Source: a bacterium
Lineage (GTDB): Bacteria; Hydrothermota; 32-111
DNA length: 47,659 bases
Assembly (NCBI GenBank): GCA_050239825.1
Contig: JBFXGO010000013.1
Location: 1 to 47,659, forward strand
Direction: 5' to 3'
Every line of letters starts with the position of its first letter. The stretch's first letter is position 1. A program made the position numbers and the translations under genes. The notes beneath the pieces were generated by a model. The model searched no databases, was not told where the DNA came from, and worked only from the letters and a program-made list of their open reading frames with translations. Below, piece after piece: positions 30,726 to 47,659 of the stretch.

Positions 30726-31990
30726 AGCCCCCCAAATCAGCCTTGAGCCTTGTGCCGTGAGCCTTGAGCTTAATACGGGGAATTGATTAATATTTTGTCT
30801 TTTCAATTCCGAGTGAGAAGCCTGTCCACAGCGCTCGTCTGTCCAATGCTTCTCATGAGGATGGGGACATTCCTACGGTGTGTCCCCATAACAAATATTG
30901 AAAGTGAAAGCTCAAAGTCGGCGAGGACGCTCCGCGAAGACGCCCATCAAGTGGTTCTCTCCTTGCTACGCTTTCCCATCTTGATTAAGCGGCGAAGCGG
31001 AGTGTGTGAGCCGACGCTACGCCCGCGTGCAGCCCATCATCAATCTTCTATTAACAATAACAACAAACTGATAGACCCTTCACTCTAGTCATAACCACAG
31101 AGGCGTTCAGGGTGACTCTGCTGAGTAAATAACTTGCCTTTACAGTCCGAGGAAAAATTCCAGTGCATCATAACTCAATATACTGCTGATTAATATTTTG
31201 TCTTTACAGTAATCTTCACAAAGTTCTGGTGCAACCCGATACCTCTATCATGTGCGTTCGCGCACATTCCACCCCAGCCAATGCTTTGTGAAGATTCAAT
31301 CAATTAATTAACTTATTGATAATCGTAAGCTCAAAGTCGGCGAGGACGCTCCGCGAAGACGCCCATCAAGTGGTTCTCTCCTTGCTCCGCTAACCCATCT
31401 TGATTAAGTGGCGAAGCGGAGTGTGTGAGCCGACGCTATGCCCGCGTGTAGCCCATCATCAATCTTCTATTAACAATAACAACAAACTGATAGACCCTTC
31501 ACTCTAGTCATAACCACAGAGGCGTTCAGGGTGACTCTGCTGAGTAAATGACTTGCCTTTACAGTCCGAGGAAAAATTCCAGTGCATCATAACTCAATAT
31601 ACTGCTGATTAATATTTTGTCTTTACAGTAATCTTCACAAAGTTCTGGTGCAACCCGATACCTCTACCATGTGCGTTCGCGCACATTCCACCCCAGCCAA
31701 TGCTTTGTGAAGATTCAATCAATTAATTAACTTATTGATAATCGTAAGCTCAAAGTCGGCGAGGACGCTCCGCGTAGCCGCCCATCAAGTGGTTCTCTCC
31801 TTGCTACGCTTTCCCATCTTGATTAAGCGGCGAAGCGGAGTGTGTGAGCCGACGCTATGCCCACGTGCAGCCCCAAGCATTTCTTGACTCGAGACCAGTA
31901 ATGTTGGACTAGGGATATCTTTATCCCATCTTGATTAAGCGGCGAAGCGGAGTGTGTGAGCCGACGCTACGCCCGCGTGCAGCCCCCCAT
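30726..31990. repeat. Mosaic palindromic repeat array A: 419-bp tandem unit x ~2.3 plus extra modules
   Basis: GTCGGC...GCCGAC hairpins at 30917-31015, 31336-31434, 31755-31853 (419-bp period) plus a 3' half at 31924-31965; 8 differences between units 1 and 2. Confidence 0.95.
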
Positions 31991-31995
31991 ACCAT

Positions 31996-33750
31996 TTACT
32001 GATTCAGCAATATTGTGTCTCTGTTCCCTTCTTTATCTTTAATCACAAAGAATTCCTGCTTCCCCTTCTCCACTCGTATCTTGACATTCCCCTTTGACAT
32101 ATTCGGTTCATTGTAAAGATAGTTCGAATCTGCCACAAAGTTCCAATCTATCCCTGACTCAGAATCATAAAGAGAGTATGTAAGCCAGTTGTATCCATTG
32201 GAGGTCTTCTTCTTCAGCCTTGAGTGTTTGGGAGGTTTTATGTCATTGCCTATTATAAAGGACCTGAGATGGTCAAGTCTCACAGTGTCGGAATCTTCTA
32301 AAATACTTACAAATGTTTGCACACCATTATTATACAAATAAAAAGCCTTTCCCTTGTAGCCTGTCAGAATAATCTTCACCGATCTTTCCAGATACTGGTC
32401 GCAAAGTTGTATTTTAAATAAATCTGTTGAATAAATCATGCCCCTCTTCTCCTTCACTTCTCTATTGAAAAGAAATGAAAGCTCGTTATCAGAGAAAATA
32501 GAGATTGAATCAGACAATTTTAATGATATAGTATTATCTATGTGTGCAATATTCTCTTTAACAGTCAATCCGTCAACTGCAAATCCATTCTCAGTCACAC
32601 CCCACCTCTCATATACAAAGTATTTATACCTATCATCAACATCATACTCTAAGAAATAACTCTTCACTTTCTCTGAAACAGAATACTTTGCATAGGAGCC
32701 AGACATAAGAACAACTATCTTATTGTTCACCTTCTTCATCTTGACGAATGAGTCATACTCCTTTTTCTTCTCCTTAGATTTCACTATTGGTATATCGCAC
32801 CTTGAAGTGTTTCCACTAAAATCTGTTAAGTTTGTCGTAATTAATGTATCAATATCTGGCGACAATATACCGGTTGCCGAATGGTAGAGAAAATTTTCAA
32901 AGGGCTTTCTAAAGGTAAATAGGTAGTTGGAATTCTTAACAGGCACATCTCCCCTGAAGAAGAGCGGTGATTTCCTGCTCAGCTCAAAACTTATTGAATC
33001 AAGGGAGAATGTTAGCAGAGTCCTTTCACCCGACTGGAGCGATGCCTCATAGACAAAGAGCTTTGCTGATTGGGAATTAGCTTTGTCAATCACTTTAACT
33101 GAAATAGAGAATGGACCATATATGTTTACCGGCTTCACCCTGAATGTAGAATCATTGACTTTTGTAGCTTGTATGTATACATTATCATGTTTTCCGTTTA
33201 TTAGAGTCGAATCAGAGGCGCATTCAAAGAGAACACCGTATATATATGGATACTCTCTGTCCTCAATACTGAATATGGAAAGCGGATTTAATGGATTATT
33301 CATTTTTGAGCGCACTTCAAAGTGCAGATGGGGATTTGATGTACCTGACGAACCTGTGTATGCAAATACTTCTCCCTTCTTAACCTGAATTTCATTCTTT
33401 CCCGGATAGATCGTCTGTCTGAATTTATTCTCCGAAAGTCTAATGCTCAAAGGTTCATTGAATTTTTGAAGATGGGCAAAAACATATATGTATTTCCCAT
33501 CCTCTATGAAGACAGTATTTCCATAACCTGTAAAATCCCTTTTTATGTATGATACCCAGCCGTCAACCGGAGCATATACCGGTTTCCCCTCAACTCCGCC
33601 AGTTGAAAGATCAAGCCCCGCGTGCAGGTGGTTCCACCTGAACTCTCCGAATGATCCCGTAATGATGGATTCGTCCAAAGGAAAGCGCGCCTCATCGGCG
33701 AATAAAGCCAGAGATGACAGTATCAGAATGAGAGAGAGTATCCGAGCCAT
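31996..33750 (-). CDS. M23 family metallopeptidase
   Basis: SFGEFR..HLHAGLD, YGN, FAHL, TGSSG...PHLHFEVR. Confidence 0.9.
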   Translation of the reverse strand: MARILSLILILSSLALFADEARFPLDESIITGSFGEFRWNHLHAGLDLSTGGVEGKPVYAPVDGWVSYIKRDFTGYGNTVFIEDGKYIYVFAHLQKFNEPLSIRLSENKFRQTIYPGKNEIQVKKGEVFAYTGSSGTSNPHLHFEVRSKMNNPLNPLSIFSIEDREYPYIYGVLFECASDSTLINGKHDNVYIQATKVNDSTFRVKPVNIYGPFSISVKVIDKANSQSAKLFVYEASLQSGERTLLTFSLDSISFELSRKSPLFFRGDVPVKNSNYLFTFRKPFENFLYHSATGILSPDIDTLITTNLTDFSGNTSRCDIPIVKSKEKKKEYDSFVKMKKVNNKIVVLMSGSYAKYSVSEKVKSYFLEYDVDDRYKYFVYERWGVTENGFAVDGLTVKENIAHIDNTISLKLSDSISIFSDNELSFLFNREVKEKRGMIYSTDLFKIQLCDQYLERSVKIILTGYKGKAFYLYNNGVQTFVSILEDSDTVRLDHLRSFIIGNDIKPPKHSRLKKKTSNGYNWLTYSLYDSESGIDWNFVADSNYLYNEPNMSKGNVKIRVEKGKQEFFVIKDKEGNRDTILLNQ

Positions 33751-34568
33751 TCTCCGAGAACCTTTTTTTCTATTATTTTCATTCCCATCAATTTAAAGTA
33801 CTTTTCTATTTCACTCTCCTCGGAGAGAAGAATTCCGGAGACGAGAACAGAACTTCCCACTCTTGCGTGCGGCATAAGGTTGGCAAAGAAGGTCTTGAAT
33901 TCGTGCGACAGCATATTGACGAGAAAGATGTCGAACATTTCGCTCTTCTTTATCCTGTCGAGAGTGCCGAGAATGAATCTTGCATTCTTTGTTCTGTTCA
34001 GCTTTGCATTCTCCTCTGTCGAAACAACTATAGAGTCGTCAATGTCAAATCCGACAACTCTCCCTGCACCGCTCTTCGATGCCGCTATTGAGAGAATTCC
34101 GGAGCCTACTCCGCAGTCCAAAACATCAAGGCCTGTCAGATCAAGGTCAGACATCAACAGAAGCACGAGCTTTGTAGTGGGATGCTCACCTGTGCCGAAG
34201 GAGAATCCCGGATTCATTATTATCTCAGTTTTGCGGGATTTGACTTTTGTTTTGTGAAAATATGGTATGACCCTGTACTTTCCCACATTGAAGGGCTTGT
34301 ATGTCTTGAGGTACTTCAGAAGATAATTCTTTTCGAATATTTTTTTCTTTTTGTAATGTTCAAGATTGAAATTACCGCTTATTACCTTTGCCGAGGTGAG
34401 TATGTCATCATAAGTTCTTCCGTAAATGTAAAGAGTCTTCTTCCCTGTCTCGCGGTTTTCGAGGAGGGAATAATAGATTCTCTGCACATAAGAGAGAGTC
34501 TCGAGTTTCTCCTCGTCAATTTCGGCATTTGTTATATCGAACTCCGCCTGAATGTATTCTTTATTCAT
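33723..34568 (-). CDS. prmA: Ribosomal protein L11 methyltransferase
   Basis: PGFSFGTGEHPTT, VLDCGVGSGILSIAA, SGIL, GEW. Confidence 0.92.
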   Translation of the reverse strand: MNKEYIQAEFDITNAEIDEEKLETLSYVQRIYYSLLENRETGKKTLYIYGRTYDDILTSAKVISGNFNLEHYKKKKIFEKNYLLKYLKTYKPFNVGKYRVIPYFHKTKVKSRKTEIIMNPGFSFGTGEHPTTKLVLLLMSDLDLTGLDVLDCGVGSGILSIAASKSGAGRVVGFDIDDSIVVSTEENAKLNRTKNARFILGTLDRIKKSEMFDIFLVNMLSHEFKTFFANLMPHARVGSSVLVSGILLSEESEIEKYFKLMGMKIIEKKVLGEWLGYSLSF

Positions 34569-34624
34569 GCGGATTATTTTATATCATATAGTTTATATGT
34601 CAAGAAAAAATGAAAATTCGGATA

Positions 34625-34813
34625 TCATAAAATAATTCTATATTTTCGCCTGGAAATTTTTATTATTTCTGATGACTTTGCTTTCTTACTTATCTCAAGA
34701 AGCCCTGACCAGTGGCTCTCTTTTCTTTTTCTGTTTCTTGATTCTCTTCTTAAAGAAACTGCTTCTTTAGATTTCAATTCCATGGTGTACTCTTCAAAAT
34801 GCAATTTTCTCAT
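34625..34813 (-). CDS. Small basic hypothetical protein
   Basis: 62 aa; its ATG overlaps the upstream stop (ATGA), suggesting translational coupling. Confidence 0.45.
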   Translation of the reverse strand: MRKLHFEEYTMELKSKEAVSLRRESRNRKRKESHWSGLLEISKKAKSSEIIKISRRKYRIIL

Positions 34814-35526
34814 TTTATTTCCTTCTTAAGCTTTTCAAATGCCTCCGCTGTTTTTTCTTCAGTGCTTCTTTTTTTTAGATATTTCCAGTCAATCTCTTTT
34901 TTATTCAAAACAGCCATCTGCTTAGCCCACTCAAAGTCATCCCTTGATTTCCAGTGTATATATGCATTCAACCTGTCCTGAATTATATCCTCTATACCTA
35001 TAATGAAGACTCTATATTCTTCTATTTCCACTTCAACCACTCTCTCCATACTTCCAGCGAGAGTGCCCGACGGAAATTTCACAAATAAATCAAGTTCCTT
35101 TGAGATATATCCTTTCCCCGATTTTTTAAAACCGATGCTTTTCATTATTTTTTCCGCCTTCTTTGTGTCTCCTATGACAATATCGATATCTCCTGTAGCA
35201 TATCCTCCAGCCGTGTAGAAAGCTACTGCATTGCCACCAACTACAATGGGTTTAATTCTTTCTTTCTTTAACATATTCGTAAGGAATCCTGCGAACAATA
35301 GCCTTTTTTTGTATGTGTTTTCCATCAATTTCATTCTTTCAAGAATAGGCGCTTTTCCTTTTTTCATCGAATCAATGACTTCCTGTGAATCAAATCTGTA
35401 TTGCTTTCCCACCTTTATAAATGGGACGGAACCCTCTTTGACCATTTTATAAATTGTCTTTTTGTTCACGGAAAGAAGCTCTGCCAACTCTTCTATGGTC
35501 AAATATCCGGTCTTTTTATTTTGCAC
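34810..35526 (-). CDS. Excisionase-like HTH (HTH_17) fused to a nucleotidyltransferase-fold domain
   Basis: YLTIEELAELL.V.KKTIY.MV..G.VP..KVG.QYRF; VVGGNAV.FY....ATGDIDIV. Confidence 0.85.
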   Translation of the reverse strand: MQNKKTGYLTIEELAELLSVNKKTIYKMVKEGSVPFIKVGKQYRFDSQEVIDSMKKGKAPILERMKLMENTYKKRLLFAGFLTNMLKKERIKPIVVGGNAVAFYTAGGYATGDIDIVIGDTKKAEKIMKSIGFKKSGKGYISKELDLFVKFPSGTLAGSMERVVEVEIEEYRVFIIGIEDIIQDRLNAYIHWKSRDDFEWAKQMAVLNKKEIDWKYLKKRSTEEKTAEAFEKLKKEIK

Positions 35527-35573
35527 TTTAGTACCCTTTGTTATACTTTAGTATATATTAGTATATTTTTCAA
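35527..35573 (-). promoter_or_regulatory. Promoter overlapped by four 10-bp phased direct repeats (putative autoregulatory operator)
   Basis: Minus strand TTGAAA-17-TAAAGT; plus strand TTTAGTACCC/TTTGTTATAC/TTTAGTATAT/ATTAGTATAT at 35527-35566. Confidence 0.6.
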
Positions 35574-35678
35574 TTTATTTCAAGAGAAAAGAAATTATTA
35601 TCCATGTATTCAGATAAAGACAACTCTCCCACTTGACTATAATTCATATAATAGTAATATCTATGTAGAGATAAAATT

Positions 35679-36524
35679 ATGAAAAAAATCATTTATTCTG
35701 TTTTCATTCTTTTGCTCTTTGTTTCCTGCGCAAAGAGCATTCAGGAAAAGTCAGATTACAGGGTCTTTTCGACAGCAGATTACAGAGAGATATCCTTCTC
35801 TGATTTCATGAAGGATTTAGCATCATCGGATGTTGTTTTAATCGGAGAGACTCATGATTCTCCATTTGACCATTATGTTGAGGAGGACCTCTTCAAAAGA
35901 GTTTTAAAGATGAGAAATATAACTCTCTCTCTTGAGATGTTTGAACGCGATGTGCAGAGAGTTCTCAACTCTTATCTTGCAGGAGAAATAACTGAGGACA
36001 GCTTCCTGAAAGCTTCGAGGCCTTGGGAAAATTACGAATCAGATTACAGAAACCTTGTAGAATTCGCAAAGAAGAATAAGATTCCCGTCATTGCCGCCAA
36101 TATACCGCGCAGTCTCGCATCCCTTGTTTCAAAGCACGGGTCAGACACCTTAAATTCCATCTCTGACATAAAGGATTTCTTTGTGAAGCCATTCTCTACT
36201 CCGGATGACTATAAGCAGAGGTTCTTCGATTTCTTCTCAATGATAGTCCCCGGCATGCCCATGTCGGCAATGTCACAGGAAAACATTTTCCTCTCACAGC
36301 TCTTTAAGGACGCCACAATGGCATTTTCAATCAATAAGGCGTTAAGCGAATATCCGGACAGACTCGTCTTCATGGTCTGCGGAGAGTTTCACTCGGATTA
36401 TCATCAGGGAATATATCAGCAGCTTAAGTCTATAAATCCCGGCATAAAAATAACCACTATCTCCATATCCGTCGATTCTGCGGATTTCGATCCTCTTAAG
36501 GCGGATTATCTGATACTCAAATGA
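35679..36524 (+). CDS. ChaN/PhuW-like lipoprotein
   Basis: LFVS-C lipobox; DVVLIGETHD, LSLEMF, AANIPR, DATMA, GEFHSDY. Confidence 0.85.
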   Translation: MKKIIYSVFILLLFVSCAKSIQEKSDYRVFSTADYREISFSDFMKDLASSDVVLIGETHDSPFDHYVEEDLFKRVLKMRNITLSLEMFERDVQRVLNSYLAGEITEDSFLKASRPWENYESDYRNLVEFAKKNKIPVIAANIPRSLASLVSKHGSDTLNSISDIKDFFVKPFSTPDDYKQRFFDFFSMIVPGMPMSAMSQENIFLSQLFKDATMAFSINKALSEYPDRLVFMVCGEFHSDYHQGIYQQLKSINPGIKITTISISVDSADFDPLKADYLILK

Positions 36525-37759
36525 CAGAAGATTTTAAAGTTCAGATTGAGAAGATTGTTTCCGACGGAAGGGGGCTGGGACGCATGAACGGCATAGCATG
36601 CTTTGTGCCCAAAACCGCTCCGCTTGACGAAATTACTGTGAGAGAGACAAAGAGGAAGAAGAATTATGTTGAGTCTGAAATTGTATCCATTGAAAAGCCC
36701 TCTCCAATGCGCATTGAGCCGAAGTGCGCATACTACGAAGAGTGCGGCGGGTGCGACATCCAGCATATTGATTATAAGAATCATGCGGAGATAAAGACAT
36801 CCATACTCAAAGAGCTTCTTTCAAAGAACGGAGGAATAGAGTTATGCAAAGAGATAAAGTACTTCTCTAAGGAGGAGTTCGGCTACAGAAACAAGATTAC
36901 ACTCTCGATAAGCGAAGGAAGGGTGGGGCTATTAAAGGAAAAGACTAACAGAGTCATAGAGATAAAAGAGTGCCTCATCTGCTCTGATAAGATAAACGAG
37001 GTTATTGCAGACATTAGAAGCAAAATTATCTTTGATTCAAGAACCGAAAAGATTGTCATAAAATCATCCCGCTTCGGAAAGACCCTTGCGGCATTCTATA
37101 CTGACTGCGAGAGGGAGGAGAATGTACCTCCTTTTATCCGGGAAATAAAGGCCGACAGCATCGTTGAGCTTCTTAAAGATAGGACTGCGCTCTATATAAA
37201 GGGAAAGGGAACCCTCTCGGAGATAATAGACGGAAGAGTCTTTACATACTCATACCCGACATTCATGCAGGTTAACCCCGGCATTGCGAACGAGATGGTC
37301 TCCTTTATCACAAAGAAGATAAAGAGAGGTGGGAGTATGATAGACCTTTTTTCGGGGGTCGGAATATACTCTATTCTCTTTTCAAACCTGTTTGGCGAGG
37401 TTGTCTCCGTAGAGTCAAACAAAGCCTCCGTGCATTACATGAGGAAGAACATTGCCGAGAATAAAGCAAAGAATGTGAATCCCGTGCAGAGATTCGTTGA
37501 TGAAAAGCTTGAATTTGACGATAAGGGGTTCGATGTATGCATAATAGACCCTCCGCGCGAAGGAGTTCACCCGATGGCAATGAAGAGAATCTTTGACGGT
37601 GTGTCAAAACAGATTATCTACATTTCCTGTGATGCGGCTACTCTTGCGAGGGACCTTAAAATGGCCGCCGGAAGCGGATTTGAAATCAAGGATATAGCAA
37701 TATTCGACATGTTCCCCAACACGATTCATTTTGAAACAGTAGTTATACTGGAAAAGTAA
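36521..37759 (+). CDS. rlmD: 23S rRNA m5U methyltransferase, RlmD/TrmA family
   Basis: TRAM domain, C...ECGGC Fe-S motif, FMQVN, DPPREG, YISCD, DMFP.T.HFE. Confidence 0.9.
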   Translation: MTEDFKVQIEKIVSDGRGLGRMNGIACFVPKTAPLDEITVRETKRKKNYVESEIVSIEKPSPMRIEPKCAYYEECGGCDIQHIDYKNHAEIKTSILKELLSKNGGIELCKEIKYFSKEEFGYRNKITLSISEGRVGLLKEKTNRVIEIKECLICSDKINEVIADIRSKIIFDSRTEKIVIKSSRFGKTLAAFYTDCEREENVPPFIREIKADSIVELLKDRTALYIKGKGTLSEIIDGRVFTYSYPTFMQVNPGIANEMVSFITKKIKRGGSMIDLFSGVGIYSILFSNLFGEVVSVESNKASVHYMRKNIAENKAKNVNPVQRFVDEKLEFDDKGFDVCIIDPPREGVHPMAMKRIFDGVSKQIIYISCDAATLARDLKMAAGSGFEIKDIAIFDMFPNTIHFETVVILEK

Positions 37760-37806
37760 CCAAATGCAGAAAAGGTTTGGAACACATTGACAATTTCAAT
37801 AGTAGA

Positions 37807-38475
37807 GTTGAGTAATATTTTGTCTTTACATTAATCTTCTCAAAGTTCTGGCGCAACCCGTTTTTTCTATTATGTGCGTTCTCGCACATTTCTCCCTCGC
37901 CAATGGTTTTAGAAGATTTGGGGACATTCCTTCGGTGTGTCCCCATAACAAATATTGAAACACGAAAGCTACAAGTCGGCGAGGACGCTCCGCGAAGACG
38001 CCCGTCGAGGTTTGCCGAGACAAAGCGGCGAAGCGGAGTGTGTGAGCCGACGCTACACCCGCCAGCAGCCCCAGCTCAATCTTCAATTATCAACAAACAA
38101 TAACCAATCAAATGATATACCCTTCACGATAGTCATAACCACAGAGGCGTTCAGGGTGACACGGTTGAGTAAGATTTTGTCTTTACAGTTCCGAGGAAAA
38201 ATTCCAGTGCATCTCCGCACTGCTATTCGATGTTTTTCCGAGGACAAGCAATTCAATTTTTATTGAAAGTGAAAGCTACAAGTCGGCGAGGACGCTCCGC
38301 GAAGACGCCCGTCGAGGTTTGCCGAGACAAAGCGGCGAAGCGGAGTGTGTGAGCCGACGCTACACCCGCCAGCAGCCCCAGCTCAATCTTCAATTATCAA
38401 CAAACAATCTGCGATTAACAATAAAAATGATAGATTCTTCACATGAGAAGAACGAATAGAGAACTTCAGAATGTC
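37807..38475. repeat. Mosaic palindromic repeat array B
   Basis: Same modules as array A; 138-bp identical direct repeat at 37964-38101 and 38271-38408 (307-bp period). Confidence 0.95.
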
Positions 38476-38497
38476 GGAACTTTTTGGGGGATAATGA

Positions 38498-39424
38498 TTA
38501 TTTCTTTGCGGTTTTAAGGAGAAGTTTGACCGATTCGAGGGTTGAACCGGCACTAAGGTCATTTGAAAAAACCTTGTCGCATGCGGGTCCATGGTCGGGA
38601 GAGACTCTCAGGTATGAGAGTCCGCATGTCACATTTACTCCATTATTGAATGAGAGCATTTTGAATGGAATCAGAACCTGATCATGGTACATTCCGAAAA
38701 AGACATCATACTTTTTCATATTCTCTTCTGTAAATGCGGAATCCGCACAGAGAGGAGAAGATACATCAAAATCCTTTTTCAATTTCTCTGCTATTTTCAA
38801 AATCTTCTCATCAGCTTTTCCAAGAAGTCCCCTGTCGGAGCAGTGGGGATTCAAGCACAATATCGCAAATTTCGGAGTTTTTTTAAGACGCTTCCGATAA
38901 AACTCCTGAACTGCCGCAATTTTGGGATAAATATTTTGATAATTTATCATTGATTCAACATCTGAAACAGAAATATGAGTAGTGATAGGCGCAACGGATA
39001 TTTTTTTGGAATAGAGAAGCATCGCCGCCTCTCTCCCGTCTCTCTTTTCGAGGTACTCTGTGTGTCCCCTGAATCCCCTGCAGTATAAACTCACACTGCT
39101 CTTTATCACAGGAAGCGTCAGAAGCCCCAGATAATCCTTCTTCTTTTTCTCTATGATGTCAACCGATCTTTTAAGGGATTCATAAGCAAGAAGTCCGCTC
39201 TCTCTGTCAGGCCTCCCGGGAGTAATTTTAAAATTGCGCCTCTCTGTCTGAATCATTGAAATGTTTTTCGGAAGAATTGTCTTTGTCTCTCTGCAGTAAT
39301 CGTTTGTCGCTTTTTCATCTGAAACCAAATCGAATTTTACGGAGGGATTTTTAAGGGCTGCGGCGGAGAGAAGCCGCAGGTTTGCTCCTGCCGCCTCTCC
39401 TGCCGAAACAAGTATTCTTTTCAT
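38498..39424 (-). CDS. pdxA: 4-hydroxythreonine-4-phosphate dehydrogenase
   Basis: GHTEYL, TTHI, LNPH, MYHDQ.LIPFK, VN.T.GL..RVSPDHG; next to surA. Confidence 0.92.
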   Translation of the reverse strand: MKRILVSAGEAAGANLRLLSAAALKNPSVKFDLVSDEKATNDYCRETKTILPKNISMIQTERRNFKITPGRPDRESGLLAYESLKRSVDIIEKKKKDYLGLLTLPVIKSSVSLYCRGFRGHTEYLEKRDGREAAMLLYSKKISVAPITTHISVSDVESMINYQNIYPKIAAVQEFYRKRLKKTPKFAILCLNPHCSDRGLLGKADEKILKIAEKLKKDFDVSSPLCADSAFTEENMKKYDVFFGMYHDQVLIPFKMLSFNNGVNVTCGLSYLRVSPDHGPACDKVFSNDLSAGSTLESVKLLLKTAKK

Positions 39425-40704
39425 TCGAGGACTTTTACAAGAACTCTCTTCTTCTCTTTGTCGATAAGAGAGTTTATCTCTTTTTCCACCTTCTTGTTTT
39501 CGAGAATTGAAGCAATCATATTCTTCACATCTTTGTATTCGCTTATGTAACCGCCCTCTTTGTTCTTCATCTGGAATATTTCGTACCCAAAATCTCCGAG
39601 AATCACTCCGGAGACAGAGTCGGATTCAAGCTTTAAAAGAGTATCTTTTATCTCTTCGGACAGCATTTCAATAGCTACTCTTCCCAGAAAACCGCCCGCG
39701 TCCTTTGTTGACGGGTCGTCCGAATATTTTTTTGCCGCCTCTTCAAAAGATATCTTTGAAGATTTTATTTCACCTGCTATGAACTCCGCCCTCTTCTTTG
39801 CATCGGTGGAATCGGATTTCGTTACAGGCATTTTAACGACAACCTGTTGAAATTTGATTGAATCTGCTTCTGCCTTTATTATTTTTATCAGATGAAACCC
39901 CGAACGGGATTGTGTTACAAGAAGAGTATCCTCTTTTGAATTCATGTATAGGAAAGCGGCAAGTTCCTGAGGCAAATCAGTGTATTTTACATATCCAACG
40001 ATTCCACGATTCTTCGCCGATTCGTCTTCGGAATACTCTTTCGCCGCCTCTCCCATGTCATTGCCTGATTTAATATACATGAAGACAGACTCTATCTTTT
40101 GAAGTGCTGAAATCATGGCTTGCGAGTCCGGCTGCACCACCACTGTTATATGGTAAAGGTCTGCGGAGAGAGGTGTAAAGAAAGAATCCTTGTTTTCTTC
40201 GTAGAATTTTTTCATCTCATTTTCGTTTACCATTATGTTCAGCTGTTTTTTCATCAAAAGCTGTTGCTTGAGAGCCATCTTTATGGCCTGTTCAAGGTAA
40301 TTCTTTTTAAGAGCCTCTTCCGTGAGATTGTTTTGTTCAAGGTATGAAAGAAATTCTTCATCACTCTTGAAATTTTTCTTTGCATCTTCAATTCTCTTAT
40401 CCACATCTTCCGATAAAAGAACCGTGTCTATGGAGATTGAATCTTTGTCTGCGATTATCTGAAGTATTTTATCTCCGACCATTATCTCGAGCATGCTGTT
40501 TTTAAGAGAATCCGCGACCTCTTTTGAAAATAACGTTGAATTCTCAAGAAGCTCTATTCTCTGGTCATATTCTGATTTTAGAATAATAGAATCATTGACA
40601 ACCGCGAAAATTTTGTCCGCACCCGAGCTTGATGCGGACAAAACTGTAAATAACGATATTAAAACACAGAGTAAAGCGGGTTTACTGCTGAATTTCCTGC
40701 TCAA
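39421..40704 (-). CDS. surA: SurA-like chaperone / peptidyl-prolyl isomerase with two PpiC domains
   Basis: DKIFAVVND..ILKSE; AKEYSED; FEEAAKKYSDD...GGFLG. Confidence 0.85.
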   Translation of the reverse strand: MSRKFSSKPALLCVLISLFTVLSASSSGADKIFAVVNDSIILKSEYDQRIELLENSTLFSKEVADSLKNSMLEIMVGDKILQIIADKDSISIDTVLLSEDVDKRIEDAKKNFKSDEEFLSYLEQNNLTEEALKKNYLEQAIKMALKQQLLMKKQLNIMVNENEMKKFYEENKDSFFTPLSADLYHITVVVQPDSQAMISALQKIESVFMYIKSGNDMGEAAKEYSEDESAKNRGIVGYVKYTDLPQELAAFLYMNSKEDTLLVTQSRSGFHLIKIIKAEADSIKFQQVVVKMPVTKSDSTDAKKRAEFIAGEIKSSKISFEEAAKKYSDDPSTKDAGGFLGRVAIEMLSEEIKDTLLKLESDSVSGVILGDFGYEIFQMKNKEGGYISEYKDVKNMIASILENKKVEKEINSLIDKEKKRVLVKVLE

Positions 40705-41551
40705 TGTATTCCACCTTTGATTTGTCTTTCAGGGTGCTGACAAATGAAGCTATGTATGTTTTATTCCTGTCCGCATAAAGCAGGTTCAAGAGGTATCCCT
40801 TTCCTGATGCGGCGTCTATGTTGGAAGGAAGATAATCAATAAGCTTCACTATCATGATTGCGCCGTTAAGCTCCATGAAAGGAGCTGATATATCGCCTTT
40901 GTTCTTCAATGAAAATGCCATTGAATCAAGAATTGCAAGGCCGTTTGATGCCCACTGTTTGTAAACCACATAGTCCGGAAGTATTCCGCCGTTCTTTGAA
41001 GTGCTTTCGTCAAGTGAGACTTCTTTTGCCATTGCTTCAAAGGATTTTTTCCCTGATTTTATTACTTTGTATATTGAATCGGCATAAGCCGCATTGGGTG
41101 CAAGAACTATTATGCCGAGCTTCACCTTTTTCATCAGTTTTTCTTTATTGTTTTCATAATAAGCCGTGATGTCTTCTTCCTTTATCGGAGCAAGCTCTGC
41201 AATTTTCTTTTCCATGAATTTATTCGCCACAAGAAGTCTCTTCTGCATTTCAAGCTGATTGACTATCTCCGGATCTTTGTCTGTTCCTGCCTTAACAGCC
41301 TCCTGATAAACAATAAAATTATCTACCAGTTCGTCAATGACGACCTTCTTATTCTCTTCTGTAAGTTGTCCGCCCTGCATAACAAGATTTACAAGCTCAT
41401 CGGTTATCGCCTCTCCGTTTACTTTGGCAAGGGGCTTTCCTGTCGTTACAAATGATGTCTTGGAGCTGTTGTTTGTTACAAGATAGGCTATTGCAAGAAC
41501 AAGAATAATTGCAACTGCCAGCAGAATTACCACTGTATTGTTCTTTTTCAT
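40682..41551 (-). CDS. PrsA/PpiC-type peptidyl-prolyl isomerase
   Basis: N-terminal TM, LAKVNGE.IT, FEAMAKEVSLD...NGG.L. Confidence 0.85.
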   Translation of the reverse strand: MKKNNTVVILLAVAIILVLAIAYLVTNNSSKTSFVTTGKPLAKVNGEAITDELVNLVMQGGQLTEENKKVVIDELVDNFIVYQEAVKAGTDKDPEIVNQLEMQKRLLVANKFMEKKIAELAPIKEEDITAYYENNKEKLMKKVKLGIIVLAPNAAYADSIYKVIKSGKKSFEAMAKEVSLDESTSKNGGILPDYVVYKQWASNGLAILDSMAFSLKNKGDISAPFMELNGAIMIVKLIDYLPSNIDAASGKGYLLNLLYADRNKTYIASFVSTLKDKSKVEYIEQEIQQ

Positions 41552-43221
41552 TTTGTCTCCTTTGTCTTTGCTAATATTTCTTCGAGCAGTTTTTCGTATT
41601 TGTCTTTATATACGACAAACTTCATCTCTGTTTTTGCTTTTTCATATTCAGTATTTATAATTGAATCTGTTACACTCTTCAGGTAATCATTCTTCAGCAT
41701 TCCATTTTTAAATGCATCTGTCAGCTCCGTCGGTTTCGGAGGAACTATCTCCATGACCTTAATCATGTTGAAGCCGCCCTCATTCCTGAATATTCCGGAA
41801 ACTTTATTTACTTTGCCCAGAGAAATCGCCTGCTGATAGTATCCGGTTGAGTCATCTTCAGTATAAATGTAATAATCCGGTTTTGAAAATTCTTTCGGTT
41901 TTACCTTTGAATAGAGTTTGGAGAAGTGTCTGAAATCATTTTTCTTGGCAAGAGAGTCCTTCACCATCTGAACCTTCATGCTGTCGTCATTTATCATAAT
42001 GTATATTCCGACTCTGCCTTTTTCGGTAAATTTAGCTATATTTGACTTATAGTAATTTACAAGCGTAGTATCGTCAGTGACAATGCTCGCTCGAATATCT
42101 TTGACAATCTGCTGTTCGGTTATTATCGCCATCTTAAGCTCTATGTCCTTCTTAAAACCAGAAGCCATGTCGGCTCCCATTCTCTTTCCCTTTTCATATA
42201 TTGTTTTGAAAAATACCACTCTGTCAATGTGGGCTTTTAGAGCGTCAGGGCTGTTGTAAGGAACCTTGCCGAATCCCTCTCTTGCGGTTATACTGTCTAT
42301 TGTCCTTATGTTCCATTTTCCAAGTGTGGAGGAGACAAGAATAAGATCTTTCTCTTCTTTAAGAGAATCAATCATTACCGCTCCGGTCGAGTCCCTCTTT
42401 AGGGAACTCAACACTTTTCCTATATTCTCTACATTTATCTCCATTTTGGCAAGGTCTCTCAGTCTCTTTTCGCTCTTAACAACCTCATCAGTTGTCAGCT
42501 TCTTTTTGAGACTCGCCTCTATCGCCTTTTTCTCTGTCGCATAATTTGACATATCCTTCAATTCGCGCTTTTTTACTCTTATTATATGATATCCAAAGGG
42601 AGTCTGAATGGGTTTTGATATTACACCGACAGGCATCTTCATGCATGCGTCTTCAAACTCCTTTACAAATGTGCCGCCTGAAAACTCTCTGAGATTTCCC
42701 TCGTTGTTTTTATTGTTTGTGTCCTCTGAAAAGAGTGCCGCCATCTCTCCGAACCTTTCGGGAGACCTTTTCAGGATCTGATAAATGCTGTCTGCCAGGG
42801 CTTTTTCCTTTGTCAGAATATGCTGCGACCAAATGGTTGTCTTTTGCCTTTTGTATGTCTCATGAATTTCTTTTTCACTCACCCTTATTCTGTCAAGAAC
42901 TTCCTGCTTGTAGACAGATTCAATAAGCTTATTGTTTTCCTGTTGAATCCTCATCTGCACAACATTCTCCGGAATCATGTTGTTCTTTTCAAGATAAGCG
43001 TAAGCAGTAATCTGTTTGAGGGTATTCTCAAAAACCTGATCCGCTTTTATTTTATTCTCTTCATATGTCGCGTTTGGCATTGGTACGAATAATTTTTCGA
43101 AATAACTCTTGTAGAAGACTTTTCCCCCAACCTCTGCGAGAGGATAATCTTTCTCTGCGCATCCTGAAACTGCAAGAAGCAGTGTCAGAAAAATCAGCGC
43201 TGTTATATAACGTCTGAGCAT
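41548..43221 (-). CDS. PpiC-type peptidyl-prolyl isomerase lipoprotein
   Basis: VSG-C lipobox; QHIL, F..MA..FSED, FVKEFE, PIQTPFGYHII. Confidence 0.88.
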   Translation of the reverse strand: MLRRYITALIFLTLLLAVSGCAEKDYPLAEVGGKVFYKSYFEKLFVPMPNATYEENKIKADQVFENTLKQITAYAYLEKNNMIPENVVQMRIQQENNKLIESVYKQEVLDRIRVSEKEIHETYKRQKTTIWSQHILTKEKALADSIYQILKRSPERFGEMAALFSEDTNNKNNEGNLREFSGGTFVKEFEDACMKMPVGVISKPIQTPFGYHIIRVKKRELKDMSNYATEKKAIEASLKKKLTTDEVVKSEKRLRDLAKMEINVENIGKVLSSLKRDSTGAVMIDSLKEEKDLILVSSTLGKWNIRTIDSITAREGFGKVPYNSPDALKAHIDRVVFFKTIYEKGKRMGADMASGFKKDIELKMAIITEQQIVKDIRASIVTDDTTLVNYYKSNIAKFTEKGRVGIYIMINDDSMKVQMVKDSLAKKNDFRHFSKLYSKVKPKEFSKPDYYIYTEDDSTGYYQQAISLGKVNKVSGIFRNEGGFNMIKVMEIVPPKPTELTDAFKNGMLKNDYLKSVTDSIINTEYEKAKTEMKFVVYKDKYEKLLEEILAKTKETK

Positions 43222-43263
43222 TGAACCTCCTTTTAATCTATTTCAATTTTTTATTTTATCAGA

Positions 43264-46233
43264 TTATAGCAAACTTTTCAATAGAGAACTTGTGAATGGA
43301 TACAGTTTTCTTGAATCCACATTCTTTATTACAATTGTGAAGGATGGCTGGTGCTTTACCTCAAGAGGATTTTCAATCTTTGCAAGCAGAGATCTCACCT
43401 CATCTATTCCGGGTTCATATCCCACCATGAACTCTATATATAGGTTCTTTCCAAGCATCTCAACTTTTCCTATAAGCTTCTCCTTGCATATTATTTTCAT
43501 CTCTTGTAGCAAAAACATGTTTTTTATCTCGTCTGGCATCTTTCCGTACCTGTCAATGAATTTCAACCTCTCTTTTTCAATATTTTCTCTCTTGCTTATC
43601 TGCGAAATATCTCTGTAGAGCTTCATTTTTCCGCTCTTTGTAAGGTTGAATCCGTCGGGAACAAATGTGTTGCCGGGAATATTTATTGTTGGTTCTATCA
43701 AACTCGCCTTCTTGACGCCTTTTACCTCGTCTATTGCTTCATTGAGAATCTTGAAGTAGAGGTTGTATCCTACATTTCCAATGAATCCGTGTTGCTGTGT
43801 CCCCAAAATTTTTCCGGCTCCCCGCATCTCAATATCCTTGATGGCGAGGTTTATTCCGGCTCCCAGCGAGGAGTATGATTTGAATGCCGAGAGCCTTTTT
43901 TTGGCATTCTCAGTTATCTGTGTCTTTTCCGGCACGATAAGATAGCAGTACGCCTCCCTCTGAGAGCGTCCGATTCTCCCTCTCAGCTGATGGAGTTCGG
44001 CTAAACCGAACATGTCCGCCCTGTTGATTATCATTGTATTTACATTGGGATTGTCTATTCCGGACTCAATAATGGCTGTGGACAGAAGAATGTCAAAGTT
44101 TCTATCTCTGAATGCCCGCATCTTCTCTTCAATCTCAATTGAGTGCATTTTTGCGTGCATGGATACGATTCTCACTTCCGGAAAAAGCTCTTTCAGTTTT
44201 TCCTCAAGACTCTTCAGGGTCTCTATCCTGTTGTGCAGGAAATAGACCTGTCCCTGCCTTGAAAGCTCTTTTAAAACTGCTGTTTTTATTGTATCCTCTG
44301 CCCACTTCACCACAAATGTCTTTATCGCCTTTCTGCCGGCCGGAGGAGTCATAATGTTTGAAATATCCTTTATTCCTGTCAAAGCCATTTCAAGAGTTCT
44401 CGGAATCGGGGTTGCCGACATTGCCAAAACATCAATGCTCTTCTTCAGTTCCTTTATTTTCTCTTTCTGTTTCACTCCGAACCGGTGCTCTTCGTCAACA
44501 ATATAGAGCCCCAAATCAAAAAATTCAATGTCGCTTGATAAAAGAGCGTGCGTTCCTATAACAAGATCAACATCTCCATTCCGTATCCTTCTTTTGACCT
44601 CTGTCTTCTCCTTCTCGCTTTTGAAGCGTGATAGAGTTTCAATCCTTATCGGAAAGGCGCTGAGTCTCTCCCTAAGCGTCTCAAAATGCTGTTGGGCGAG
44701 AATTGTCGTGGGAACAAGAAACGCAACCTGTTTTCCGCTTAAAAATGCTTTAAACGCCGCTCTCGCGGCTACCTCTGTCTTTCCGTATCCCACCTCTCCC
44801 GATATCAGCCTGTCCATCGGCTTATCCTTCATCATGTCTTTTTTTACTTCTTCAATCGCCTTCAGCTGGTCTTCAGTCTCTTCATGTTCAAACATCTCCT
44901 CCATTTCAATCTGTCTTTCATCATCCTGCTGAAACCTGAATCCTGCGACAACCTCTCTTTCAGCATACAATCGGAGAAGTTCGCCGGCTATTCTCTTTAC
45001 GGATTCACGCACCTTCTCTTTTTGTTTCTCAAATGAATTTTTCGCAAGAGAGGAGAGCTTTGGTTCTCTCTCCTTTCCACCGATATACTTATCTATCAGC
45101 CTTATCTGATCGACAGGAACAAAGAGTTTGTCGTTATTGTCATAAAAAATTTTAATGCAGTCTGTATACCTCTCTCCGTATGTCACCCTCTCTATGCCCG
45201 CATATCGCCCCACACCGTATGTCTGATGCACAATTATGTCGCCCATCTCAAGGGAATCAAGCTCTTCGAGTGCTATAGGAGAGAGGGGAACCTCGTAAAA
45301 CTTCGAAAATCTCTTCCTTGAAAAGACTTCAAAATCATTTATAAAGACCTCTCTCTTTTCGGGAAGAGAGAATCCCGCAATTATGTTTCCCCTGTAATAC
45401 TCAGCATCAGCTGAAGTAATCTTCTTTATTCTCTCCTCTTCATAATCATTCGCGCAGAAAATCCTTACTTTCCAGCCTCTGTAGTTTGCATCAATGTATG
45501 AACTGAGAGATCCCGACTGAAGCGACAGAGGCTTCAATTCCTCGCACACTGAATAATCCGTATTCTGAGAGAGCAGAATATCCTCCATGTCATATGAAAG
45601 ATAACCGCTTAAAAAAACCTCTGCTTTCGTCTCCGCCTCTTCAATTGCTGTTTTTTCAGGAAGGAAATACTCCTCAATCCTTTTCACCGATTCCTGCGTC
45701 TGTGTTGAAATCTCTCTTATGTCTTCAACTGTTTCATCATACAACTCTATCCTCACACAAGGTCCGACGATTCCGTATATGTCAAGAATGAACCCCCTGA
45801 CCGCATACTCCTTTCTCTCATATACATTGTCCTGTCTCTCAAAAGAGAAAGAGGAGAGGATTCTTTCAATTTCATTAAAATCCAATTTCTCGCCTCTTCT
45901 TATGGTGATTCCATTTTTCATGAAATTTGATTTTTCAGGAAATTTTATTGACGAAAAATTTTTGTCAGAGACAATCGATTTGCCTGTCTTCATGGCATAA
46001 AGGGCAAGGTACACAGCATCTTCATTTGATGCATCTATCAGAAGGTATGATTCCTCTTCAAAAAGTTCAAGATTCTCCGCCAGCATTGAGGCGGTCTCAA
46101 AGTCGCTCTCCAGAATGAGCTGTTTTTCTCCCTTCAATTCTCTGTTTTTAAGCAAAAATGGAATTAGCCCCCTTACGGATTTTTCGGGGGGTATATTTGG
46201 GATTATATCCAGAAGTTTATTAAATCTTGACAT
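43264..46233 (-). CDS. mfd: Transcription-repair coupling factor
   Basis: YAVRG.ILDIY, RID VH..YGVGRY, GEVGYGKTEVA, DEEHRFGV, SATPIPRTL, QLRGRIGR, TRG motif. Confidence 0.96.
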   Translation of the reverse strand: MSRFNKLLDIIPNIPPEKSVRGLIPFLLKNRELKGEKQLILESDFETASMLAENLELFEEESYLLIDASNEDAVYLALYAMKTGKSIVSDKNFSSIKFPEKSNFMKNGITIRRGEKLDFNEIERILSSFSFERQDNVYERKEYAVRGFILDIYGIVGPCVRIELYDETVEDIREISTQTQESVKRIEEYFLPEKTAIEEAETKAEVFLSGYLSYDMEDILLSQNTDYSVCEELKPLSLQSGSLSSYIDANYRGWKVRIFCANDYEEERIKKITSADAEYYRGNIIAGFSLPEKREVFINDFEVFSRKRFSKFYEVPLSPIALEELDSLEMGDIIVHQTYGVGRYAGIERVTYGERYTDCIKIFYDNNDKLFVPVDQIRLIDKYIGGKEREPKLSSLAKNSFEKQKEKVRESVKRIAGELLRLYAEREVVAGFRFQQDDERQIEMEEMFEHEETEDQLKAIEEVKKDMMKDKPMDRLISGEVGYGKTEVAARAAFKAFLSGKQVAFLVPTTILAQQHFETLRERLSAFPIRIETLSRFKSEKEKTEVKRRIRNGDVDLVIGTHALLSSDIEFFDLGLYIVDEEHRFGVKQKEKIKELKKSIDVLAMSATPIPRTLEMALTGIKDISNIMTPPAGRKAIKTFVVKWAEDTIKTAVLKELSRQGQVYFLHNRIETLKSLEEKLKELFPEVRIVSMHAKMHSIEIEEKMRAFRDRNFDILLSTAIIESGIDNPNVNTMIINRADMFGLAELHQLRGRIGRSQREAYCYLIVPEKTQITENAKKRLSAFKSYSSLGAGINLAIKDIEMRGAGKILGTQQHGFIGNVGYNLYFKILNEAIDEVKGVKKASLIEPTINIPGNTFVPDGFNLTKSGKMKLYRDISQISKRENIEKERLKFIDRYGKMPDEIKNMFLLQEMKIICKEKLIGKVEMLGKNLYIEFMVGYEPGIDEVRSLLAKIENPLEVKHQPSFTIVIKNVDSRKLYPFTSSLLKSLL

Positions 46234-46261
46234 ACATTCTGCTTTAAGTTAAAGTATTATA

Positions 46262-46723
46262 ATGAAGAAAATATTTATTTCAATGATTTTTTTGGCATCC
46301 TTGTTTTTCTCATGCTATTTCATGGGAGAGGCGGATGAGGGAACAATCTATTACTATGGATTCGACTTCTCGATAGGAAACCTCAATTCCAATTTTTCAA
46401 AAAACGACATTGTCGCAATAGTGGATTACAATCCTTCAATCGAAAACAGCGCGAGGGGGATGAATGTTTATCTCCTCCTCGACACACTCTCTCTGAGGCA
46501 GGATATAAAGGACTATGGAGAGGAGTCCTTCAATTTCATCGACAGAATAGAACCAAATATGCAATTTGATTCAATATGCGCCCCAATCACAGTCGGTCAC
46601 CTCTATGTTATGAGATGCAGAGACGGCTTTGTAAAGTTCAGAGTCATGTCTATATCCGGTCCGAACCTATATAAAAAAGAAATAGGCGTAATCTACGAAT
46701 TCACAGACGATTCAGTCTTTTAA
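46262..46723 (+). CDS. Lipoprotein, hypothetical
   Basis: FFS-C lipobox; GFDFS, GHLYV..C.DG.VKFRV. Confidence 0.7.
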   Translation: MKKIFISMIFLASLFFSCYFMGEADEGTIYYYGFDFSIGNLNSNFSKNDIVAIVDYNPSIENSARGMNVYLLLDTLSLRQDIKDYGEESFNFIDRIEPNMQFDSICAPITVGHLYVMRCRDGFVKFRVMSISGPNLYKKEIGVIYEFTDDSVF

Positions 46724-46730
46724 ACAATCA

Positions 46731-47608
46731 GTTTCGAGTTACGAGTTACGGGTTACGAGTTTAAATACAATACAGAGTGCTGATTAATATTTATTCTTTT
46801 CATTAATCTTCTAAAACTTCTGGTACAACCCGTTCTTTTCTATCATGTGCGTTCGCGCACATTACACCCGCGCCAATGGTTTTAGAAGATTCAGGCAATT
46901 AAATAACTTATTGATACACGAAAGCTCAAAGTCGGCGAGGACGCTCCGCGAAGACGCCCATCGAGTGGTCGCCCCCTTGCTCCGCTATCCCATCTTGATA
47001 AAGCGGCGAAGCGGAGTGTGTGAGCCGACGCTACGCTATTCATCAGCCCACCAAATCAGCCCTGAGCCTTGTGCCGTGAGCCTTGAGCTTAATACGGAGA
47101 GCCGAGTAAATAACTTGTCTTTACAGTTCCGAGGAAAAATTCCAGTGCAGTCATAACTCAATATACTGCTGATTAATATTTATTCTTTTCAATAATCTTC
47201 TAAAACTTCTGGTGCAACCCGAGGCGTCTATCATGTGCGCTCGCGCACATTTCACCCTCGGCAATGGTTTTAGAAGATTCAATCAATTAAATAACTTATT
47301 GAAACACGAAAGCTACAAGTCGGCGAGGACGCTCCGCGAAGACGCCCATCAAGTGGGCGACCCCTTGCTCCGCTAACCCATCTTGATAAAGCGGCGAAGC
47401 GGAGTGTGCGAGCCGACGCTACACCCGCCATCAGCCCATAAACAATCTTCAATCATCAACAATCAATAAACAATAATCAATAAACTGATAGACCCTTCAC
47501 GATAGTCATAACTACTGAATAGTTCAGGGTGACTCGATTGAGTCATAACCATAGAGGCATTCAGGGTGACACTGCTGAGTAAGATTTTGTCTTTACAGTA
47601 ATCTTCAC
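46731..47608. repeat. Mosaic palindromic repeat array C
   Basis: Same modules; GC hairpins at 46931-47029 and 47319-47417 (388-bp period); long stem-loops at 46805-46891 and 47194-47279. Confidence 0.95.
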
Positions 47609-47659
47609 TAGCCGCCAGTTAAAAAGCTACAATTTGGCTTTAATTTTTCCCATCCTGAA
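47608..47659 (-). CDS. Possible 3' end of a convergent gene
   Basis: Open frame ...SGWEKLKPNCSFLTGG-TAG ends where array similarity stops; too short to verify. Confidence 0.35.
   Translation of the reverse strand, partial: SGWEKLKPNCSFLTGG

Follow-up and report, generated by a model that had tools for sequence, protein, structure and literature searches.

The question raised by this stretch of DNA is what its long non-coding repeat arrays are and how they are built and maintained. The window (the whole stretch analyzed, 47,659 nucleotides; contig JBFXGO010000013.1 of assembly GCA_050239825.1, from a bacterium of the phylum Hydrothermota) is contig C26 of a 2.12-Mb genome in 67 contigs, here called G000. 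It holds three plus-strand arrays, A (30726..31990), B (37807..38475), and C (46729..47608), in which a few modules recur in constant order. These arrays belong to a non-coding, non-autonomous mosaic repeat family that is probably specific to its genus. We favor, with moderate confidence, reading it as a selfish mosaic of hairpins that act as single-stranded DNA (ssDNA), similar to the Neisseria intergenic mosaic elements (NIME) and the bacterial interspersed mosaic elements (BIME).

Array units follow the formula L-[S1/S2/S3](P)-linker-G[inner a/b/P]-[H/R/x/TIRYT end]. Module G is a hairpin of four stacked helices with a conserved 7x7 loop that contains tandem G.A; its type example lies at 30917..31015 (+), with further copies at 31336-31434, 31755-31853, 37975-38051, 38282-38358, 46931-47029, and 47319-47417 and a right half at 31923-31965. 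The leader L and the long stem-loop S1 occupy 31187..31296 (+) and also 31606-31715, 37809-37918, and 47170-47279. Two other alleles fill the same slot: S2 (30808..30861, +) and S3 (38190..38244, +; half copies at 31146-31167, 31565-31586, and 47128-47149). The P hairpin (30863..30887, +; also 37920-37944) occurs both in the S slot and within G. Module R, which carries a GTCA tag on the minus strand, lies at 31069..31116 (−), 31488-31535, 38113-38160, and 47486-47533, with a partial copy at 47541-47570, and its variant R' (38428..38475, −) closes array B. H is a run of the heptamer G(A/T)GCC(A/G/T)T (30726..30790, +; also 47045-47109), and x (31878..31917, +) is a rarer filling of the slot after G that rejoins a G right half rather than L. 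Array A accordingly reads H-L-S2-P-G-R-L-S3half-L-S1-G-R-L-S3half-L-S1-G-x-G(right half); array B reads L-S1-P-G(short inner form)-R-L-S3-G-R'; and array C reads GAGTTAC heptamers-L-S1-G-H-L-S3half-L-S1-G-R-r-L-S1 start.

An earlier description made from the letters alone (the sequence-only reading) gave the coordinates, shared orientation, and module order of the three tracts, with periods of 419, 307, and 388 bp, and all of these are present in the sequence. The repeats are far beyond chance: tract A contains 300-nt copies that are 94-98% mutually identical, tract B contains a perfect repeat of 138 nt, and the hairpins fold better than shuffled sequences (z of −2.4 and −2.9 for G and −5.4 for S1). 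Three modules had been drawn too simply. S, taken as one module, comprises the three alleles S1, S2, and S3. H comprises GAGCCRT heptamers, GAGTTAC heptamers, and a CAATAA-rich lead-in to R. R, described as a hairpin module, alone folds no better than shuffles (z +0.8).

The order of the modules is strict. Among 145 right-half anchors of G, a few of which are spurious because two mismatches were allowed, 72 reach the next full G, 16 rejoin a G right half, and 57 close an array. All 72 complete G-to-G spacers keep the order G, slot C, L, slot A, linker, G. Slot C, directly after G, holds H in 44 spacers, R in 23, x in three, and unclassified sequence in two, and H and R never appear together in one complete spacer. 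The cycle L-S-(P)-G-H-(R) first proposed thus holds in its fixed order and fails in its succession of H and R, which are alternative fillings of one slot. Slot A is S1, S2, or S3, often with P in place of the right arm, and in 12 spacers the final S is preceded by a half S3 or by a second S. The 72 spacers fall into 18 types. Since adjacent units are of identical type in only 7 of 39 cases, the arrays are mostly not local tandem copies; array A is partly one. An array may open partway through G or within an H, L, or GAGTTAC run, and its last element is G, L, or one TIRYT end.

The family extends well beyond the window. BLAST of the modules across G000 found 59 loci, 45 of them with G, totaling 40,906 bp (1.9% of the genome), and a covariance model of G recovered 108 full copies from 150 scored candidates. 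A family first described from three loci, for which the genome-wide copy number had been named as a check, is therefore present in about 45 arrays. Of 151 genomes from the phylum, the same model detected G in three, every one from this genus, in a search that scored 23 candidates per genome under stricter filters, so that weak relatives may escape; BLAST across 41 genomes concurs (3 of 41). Pattern scans added 13 further loci, all in one metagenome, and one further contig in a bin labeled Vulcanibacillus. This is the only contig of its bin with matches, and it includes a gene with 42-44% identity to genes of G000. It is likely misbinned, judging from these sequence matches, and we therefore exclude it as a case of spread into another phylum. 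Rfam, the proposed check on novelty, gave no array match for the whole window at the gathering threshold, and tract A searched at E up to 1 returned a single weak match outside the array. A pattern scan of viral contigs gave no matches, and 605 bases of tract A had no blastn match among phage and plasmid records. A literature search found no published description, and the supplementary tables of SRM (PMC11893778) and terminal inverted repeat (TIR; PMC3733652) sequences might list R- or P-like motifs.

Orthologous sites, another comparison named at the outset, show that the arrays were gained. The site of array A is a 3-bp gap in congener G001, that of array B is a 3-bp gap in congener G002, and at the site of array C, G001 has a 0-bp gap and G002 a 288-bp mini-array oriented like array C. 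In both congeners, site C is followed by a gene that G000 has on contig C47, where it is preceded by a further array of 1.6 kb and a repeat gene of the PF18780 type. The lexA-amrS gap and a few others are shared between genomes, the congeners being species and not strains. Both G000 and G002 have arrays between lexA and amrS in opposite orientation, and the G002 array is closer to other G002 arrays than to its orthologue (best scores 384 vs 145), which indicates concerted evolution. Genomes G004 and G007 of the sister genus g3 carry a sequence-unrelated modular repeat family at about 100 loci each (102 and 91 matches), one array of which (L180:7418-7920, G004) occupies the same gap as array A. 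The hairpin of the g3 repeat also recurs in the sequence flanking the small GIY-YIG gene of g3. That the sister genus carries an unrelated modular family, once in the gap of array A, suggests a recurrent process.

We then used the copies as a population. Among type-a G copies, 88 of 90 are distinct. Their mean r2 is 0.36 for sites 1-5 nt apart and 0.14 for sites 6-15 nt apart; at greater spacing it drops to 0.012-0.018, where independence predicts 0.011. Between unpaired variants separated by 5-20 nt, linkage is nearly absent. All four gametes are present in 465 of 468 pairs more than 15 nt apart, Bonferroni correction leaves no significant pair among 55 pairs of markers that include the slots, and 54 six-site haplotypes were observed against 54.8 (standard deviation (sd) 2.7) after shuffling. 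Copies in the same array are somewhat closer than copies elsewhere (14.0 vs 18.0 differences). The paired arms of S1 remain linked at 70 nt (r2 0.87; counts 29, 1, 0, and 9, with two odd rows and 23 P-replaced rows excluded), as do the halves of the inner hairpin (0.64), while each arm is linked less to the hairpin between them (0.43 and 0.28). These data reveal that very short patches are heavily converted between copies and that folding is selected: an exchange seldom disrupts base pairing, which places the fold under selection. The unlinking signal may be strengthened by recurrent mutation at tolerant positions; multi-base alleles nonetheless assort freely. Because exchange needs homology in L, the linker, and G, the slots swap alleles while the order stays fixed. 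Recombination between homologous anchors thus accounts for the fixed cycle, and no function is required.

Covariation within the hairpins points in the same direction. For 16 chosen G sequences, 15 of 26 pairs changed on both sides and 88% of cells are paired; none of 500 shuffles scored as high, and slid controls gave 18-42%. A set of 46 distinct copies from outside G000 gave 19 of 26 pairs, although it was aligned to the model and is biased toward it. Paralogous G types have replaced stems and kept the letters of the 7x7 loop, and the stems of S covary around an invariant C(A/G)ATG. Together with the linked S1 arms, the covariation of G and S supports the selection for structure posited in the sequence-only reading. 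Many of the unpaired G cells are tandem G.A swaps, which are functional on the plus strand only and substitute for Watson-Crick pairs solely there. Under RNA parameters, 88 of 97 distinct G copies fold better when read as the plus strand, and P reads as a UNCG loop on that strand. In 83 of 89 copies, the minus strand of the inner G loop reads GC-GNA-GC, a mini-hairpin described as far more stable as DNA than as RNA (PMC13037366). Stem substitutions of the G.T versus A.C kind are not decisive (outer helix 11:4, middle helix 6:12, with two helices mis-registered). As the GC-GNA-GC loop is conserved and folding motifs occur on both strands, we infer that the arrays fit ssDNA better than a single RNA.

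The modules that follow G resemble the ends of small genes elsewhere in the genome. G000 has one 102-aa GIY-YIG gene (PF01541), on contig C27, bounded by inverted hairpins; R matches its 5' flank hairpin at 42 of 48 bases and R' its 3' flank hairpin at 39 of 48. Its orthologue adjoins tadA in G002. The protein has no NCBIfam family match, and among PDB entries matches only 1zg2 (E 0.001); the ssnA GIY-YIG gene with its flanking repeats has a comparable layout (PMC11893778). Four Y1-HUH genes (contigs C5, C14, C18, and C56) have HuH and Y-x3-NP motifs, long C-termini, and terminal inverted repeats, the layout of TIRYT genes (PMC3733652; 10.1101/279083). A Pfam HTH domain was found in one of the four proteins, and NF047646 matched all three tested, below its cut-off. 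Arrays have 14 CACCGTCCC-type TIRYT ends inside them or no more than 300 bp away; all are co-oriented, and six lie between two G right halves. The minus strand of P begins with GGGGACAC, the published TIRYT terminal-repeat consensus. The H word is also that of the inverted arms of a four-helix-bundle gene on contig C49. The four-helix-bundle gene of G002 has AAAAG(G/A)T-type arms, and the arrays of G002 have AAAAGT-type runs. A GTAG-tagged repetitive extragenic palindrome (REP) fills the same slot in G001, G002, and the metagenome relative; no intergenic GTAGGGGC occurs in G000. Thus, the slot after G is filled by what sequence matching identifies as terminal repeats of resident Ssn-like GIY-YIG, TIRYT, and four-helix-bundle genes, the gene types whose flanks were to be searched for module copies. 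The window was said to hold no candidate enzyme, and the candidates indeed sit elsewhere in the genome. Of the proposal that a non-autonomous element is mobilized in trans, the non-autonomous part stands, and sequence kinship now supplies candidate trans partners, which may act on the arrays.

Several smaller observations concern these genes. Gene-less elements of 115-290 bp with the inverted repeats of Y1 (TIRYT) genes appear to be MITE-like (miniature inverted-repeat transposable element-like) TIRtron derivatives; in G000, they lie at C14:36255-36457, C28:13896-14098, C41:22136-22337, C47:6392-6595, C22:10781-10895, C9:37880-38170, C19:6836-6973 and 9972-10109, and C33:9180-9443. Several open reading frames (ORFs) share an N-terminal MKNIFN...FTVILKSAVV... 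that reads through an SRM-like GTCATTCTGAAG hairpin repeat, placing the repeat within predicted coding starts (G000 C49:187 and 4296, C25:47651, C63:17142 and 18846; L168, L169, L170). P hairpins lie inside degenerate tRNA-like sequence beside a tRNA gene (G000 C27:45200-45390, L029:600-790; C7:59631-59828), and the GIY-YIG gene is preceded by a distinct 64-nt tandem repeat (L029:1780-2166). In G002, a RAYT gene (L218:2250-3073, contig C138) has a GTAG-type REP upstream and twice in frame inside the gene, as in subclass 2.4.

The arrays also show a strong polarity. Convergent gene ends, described for A and B and suspected for C, are not typical of the family: among 47 arrays, only eight lie in convergent gaps, nine are in divergent gaps, 20 in co-directional gaps, and 10 at contig edges. 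The 108 full G copies agree in strand on any one contig, and contig C39 holds one back-to-back pair of arrays. Of 31 co-directional gaps, 28 have flanking genes to which the plus strand is antisense (G000, 18 of 20; G002, 8 of 9; G001, 2 of 2; the congener counts coming from 36 regions chosen because they had matches). By codon skew alone, 32 of the 47 arrays are lagging-like, eight leading-like, and seven unclear, with lagging:leading ratios of 7:1 in convergent and 5:4 in divergent gaps, and both arrays on contig C3 follow transcription against the skew. Transcription predicts polarity at least as well as replication. Replication was considered as the sole cause and set aside given the divergent gaps and the C3 arrays; the two influences are not separable here. 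The GTCA, GGGAC, and GTAG tags are all on the minus strand, that is, the non-template or lagging-template strand, and IS200/IS605 elements are reported to target the lagging template (10.1101/279083). Separately, in G000 C3:52533-62672 the codon skew switches to the right of dnaA-dnaN, not before it, near a 1.8-kb array (55303-57143).

These observations can be arranged into a mechanism. Arrays arise at gaps that are empty in congeners; the slot after G is filled, as kinship at the sequence level shows, with the terminal repeats of small resident genes; and the roughly 100 copies trade very short patches, so that alleles swap at constant order, with pairing-breaking exchanges rare and the fold under selection. 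An Ssn-like nuclease and/or TIRYT enzymes may then read the folds as ssDNA, their nicks starting conversion and seeding new sites, in which case copies that keep the fold would go on spreading. Orientation might be filtered by transcription, and possibly by replication, in a way that puts the minus strand, which bears the enzyme tags, on the non-template and lagging-template side. On occasion, genes of toxin-antitoxin type travel between arrays as a by-product.

Several findings weigh against this selfish ssDNA mosaic. The covariation of G stems from few paralogous lineages, which inflates the shuffle control. Tandem G.A and G.T sit on the plus strand in G and S, whereas the tags of R, P, and the TIRYT ends sit on the minus strand, and neither strand alone therefore accounts for everything. 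The array ends listed are ragged and show neither a shared cut site nor a target duplication; for the target-duplication check, the empty sites come from species 62-88% identical in protein and the junctions are too diverged. The published SRM pattern has four matches in the genome, none in arrays or GIY-YIG flanks, R being longer and sharing the GTCA foot, and no gene was found bracketed by G or S themselves. G001 has arrays, yet its GIY-YIG gene carries a stop, and the four-helix-bundle gene was not found in that genome. Finally, the Y1 and GIY-YIG genes are each present in 13 of 14 genomes of the family that lack G.

Some of these points would suit a passive satellite, in which the ends of mobile genes were swept in once, growth and shuffling came only from RecA-dependent conversion and slippage in the host, and pairing was kept for host reasons (transcript ends, nuclease protection) or by repair of mismatched hairpins. 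Neither the order nor the shuffling requires a dedicated enzyme, and the ragged ends, the closer kinship of copies within one array, and the persistence of arrays in G001 despite its broken GIY-YIG gene all accord with such an origin. Gains at previously empty sites in each species and the opposite orientations at lexA-amrS nevertheless require a seeding route, and loop letters of G that stay fixed while stems are replaced suit a protein reader; we consider the satellite unlikely while granting it a real chance. The plus-strand folding preference, the strand-specific tandem G.A, and the UNCG loop of P would instead be expected if the arrays were transcribed from the plus strand into functional or processed G and S RNAs, possibly recopied by a reverse transcriptase. 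That strand is antisense to flanking transcription in nearly all co-directional gaps, array A has no excess of promoter-like (5 vs 2.7, sd 2.0) or terminator-like (1 vs 1.2) sequences, Rfam finds nothing in the arrays, the conserved GC-GNA-GC sits on the opposite strand, and arrays begin and finish mid-module, which together make an RNA array improbable.

The genes next to arrays raise the further idea of a domesticated platform for gene capture, with host-kept recombination pads exchanging defense and toxin-antitoxin cassettes like an integron without an integrase. From 42 chosen proteins at 17 loci, plus the Y1 genes, we find an AbiE pair, AAA/DUF4143, and nucleotidyltransferase genes between paired arrays, and ParE-Phd, Fic, PIN, RhuM, and ORF6N genes near some arrays. 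The same AbiE pair (80% identical) is at a different site in G002, and the independently assembled Vulcanibacillus-binned contig (L025, L027, L028) carries two tandem copies of a 5.9-kb block in which arrays separate AbiE and AAA/DUF4143 genes. At site C, two arrays accompany a gene not found in either congener with the query used, the PF18780 repeat gene, of which two 98% identical copies (G000 C47:3-374 and C44:3-374, minus) each lie beside an array start and are cut by a contig end. On the other side, most arrays adjoin ordinary housekeeping genes, the bracketed genes include a symporter, and tolerant gaps gather repeats and accessory genes alike; we regard host-kept capture as quite improbable. 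The PF18780 gene was also considered as an array enzyme and rejected; being a repeat protein and not found in the congeners, it is cargo. There is next to no chance that the family is an assembly artifact of collapsed repeats. Several contigs do terminate within arrays, with 127-bp overlaps, and copy number within long arrays could be off. The shuffling acts over 5-100 nt, below those overlaps, so assembly does not explain it, and the same grammar and alleles recur in two congeners and two further independent assemblies.

Among known systems, it is rather likely that the family works like NIME arrays and BIMEs. In NIME, dRS3 hairpins separate families of 50-150-bp spacers (PMC1797815), and the present arrays likewise are long and intergenic, alternate a conserved hairpin with spacer families, receive other repeats, and are dynamic between genomes. 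As in NIME/SsnA, a small single-domain GIY-YIG gene has a flanking hairpin that recurs in arrays (PMC11893778). In contrast to NIME, the anchor here is a 77-130-nt covarying hairpin, three slots follow a fixed order and all run head to tail, the nuclease-flank hairpin is one slot allele rather than the anchor, the ends of two further gene types are built in, and the arrays at sites A, B, and C appear not to hold syntenic positions between species. The dRS3 sequence ATTCCC-N8-GGGAAT is absent from the module sequences by inspection, no pattern search having been run. Like the REP/BIME-RAYT and TIR-TIRYT (TnpA-Y1 subclass 2.1) systems, the family consists of non-autonomous extragenic palindromes with Y1-HUH genes in trans (10.1101/279083; PMC3733652). 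Terminal repeats form a repeat family in TIRYT systems, and P carries their GGGGWSAS consensus (PMC3733652); as in REP systems, the congeners place a GTAG-tagged REP in the slot after G. REPs are palindromes of 20-40 bp with a GTAG or CGTC foot, whereas G and S span 55-130 nt and whole units 290-420 bp, the arrays have no alternating inverted pairs, and TIRYT ends are only a minor module. The contrast in unit size with REP and BIME drawn in the sequence-only reading holds; the distance it implied from NIME/BIME mosaics does not, because NIME spacers reach 50-150 bp and bring the likeness closer. Pneumococcal BOX is also an ordered modular intergenic repeat with variable module number and predicted stem-loops in a genome of about 2 Mb (PMC3049150). 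BOX has terminal inverted repeats, target duplications, and a closed A-Bn-C form (PMC3049150); the present arrays form an open cycle, their ends are ragged, and each slot has alternative alleles. No terminal inverted repeats bound them, as they would a MITE or BOX element, and their spacers recur genome-wide as few alleles, unlike the unique spacers that separate identical repeats in a CRISPR array. Because the family lacks the sequences and ends that define NIME, BIME, and BOX, we do not file it under any of them.

How REP, BIME, and NIME arrays are constructed and kept up is a long-standing open question, and this family makes parts of it testable. The roughly 100 copies in one genome provide population-genetic evidence for very short-patch exchange and selection on pairing, and modules traceable to the flanks of three named gene types in the same genome make enzyme-substrate pairs directly assayable. 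Ssn, TIRYT, and four-helix-bundle repeat systems are here joined in one structure. If the enzymes are inactive on arrays, the family would be a lineage-specific repeat of modest interest. A bolder extension, speculative and in our judgment unlikely, is a self-maintaining ssDNA recombination network in which nicking of the hairpins by resident GIY-YIG and Y1-HUH enzymes would drive conversion among some 100 copies in patches shorter than 20 nt, the slot after G would capture the ends of invading mobile genes, and paired arrays would move toxin-antitoxin and defense genes, an integrase-free counterpart of integrons that would have arisen separately in two sister genera.

In the window itself, array A lies between a plus-strand gene for a 241-aa protein without Pfam or NCBIfam match (29994..30719) and a minus-strand gene for an M23 peptidase-domain protein (31996..33750), and array B between genes for a TRAM-domain RNA (uracil-5-)-methyltransferase (36521..37759, +) and PdxA (38498..39424, −). 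Convergent stops flank both, as originally described. Array C follows a plus-strand gene for a 153-aa protein (46262..46723) that has no Pfam or NCBIfam match and is conserved in both congeners, and it terminates 51 bases before the contig end. The suggestion that C is also convergent is probably right, since a minus-strand frame closes with TAG at 47609-47611 and the gene beyond site C in a congener is convergent. The only ORFs of at least 40 aa that overlap tract A are of 44, 101, and 50 aa and are composed of shuffled modules.

Three further features lie apart from the arrays. In the window, positions 34810-35526 (minus) encode an HTH_17 domain fused to a DUF6036 nucleotidyltransferase, which has no adjoining array and is missing from the syntenic block of G002. 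In the rRNA region of G000, an ORF at C5:1441-1929 resembles, by eye, a LAGLIDADG homing endonuclease, and a 404-aa ORF at C5:5253-6467 adjoins a TIRYT gene.

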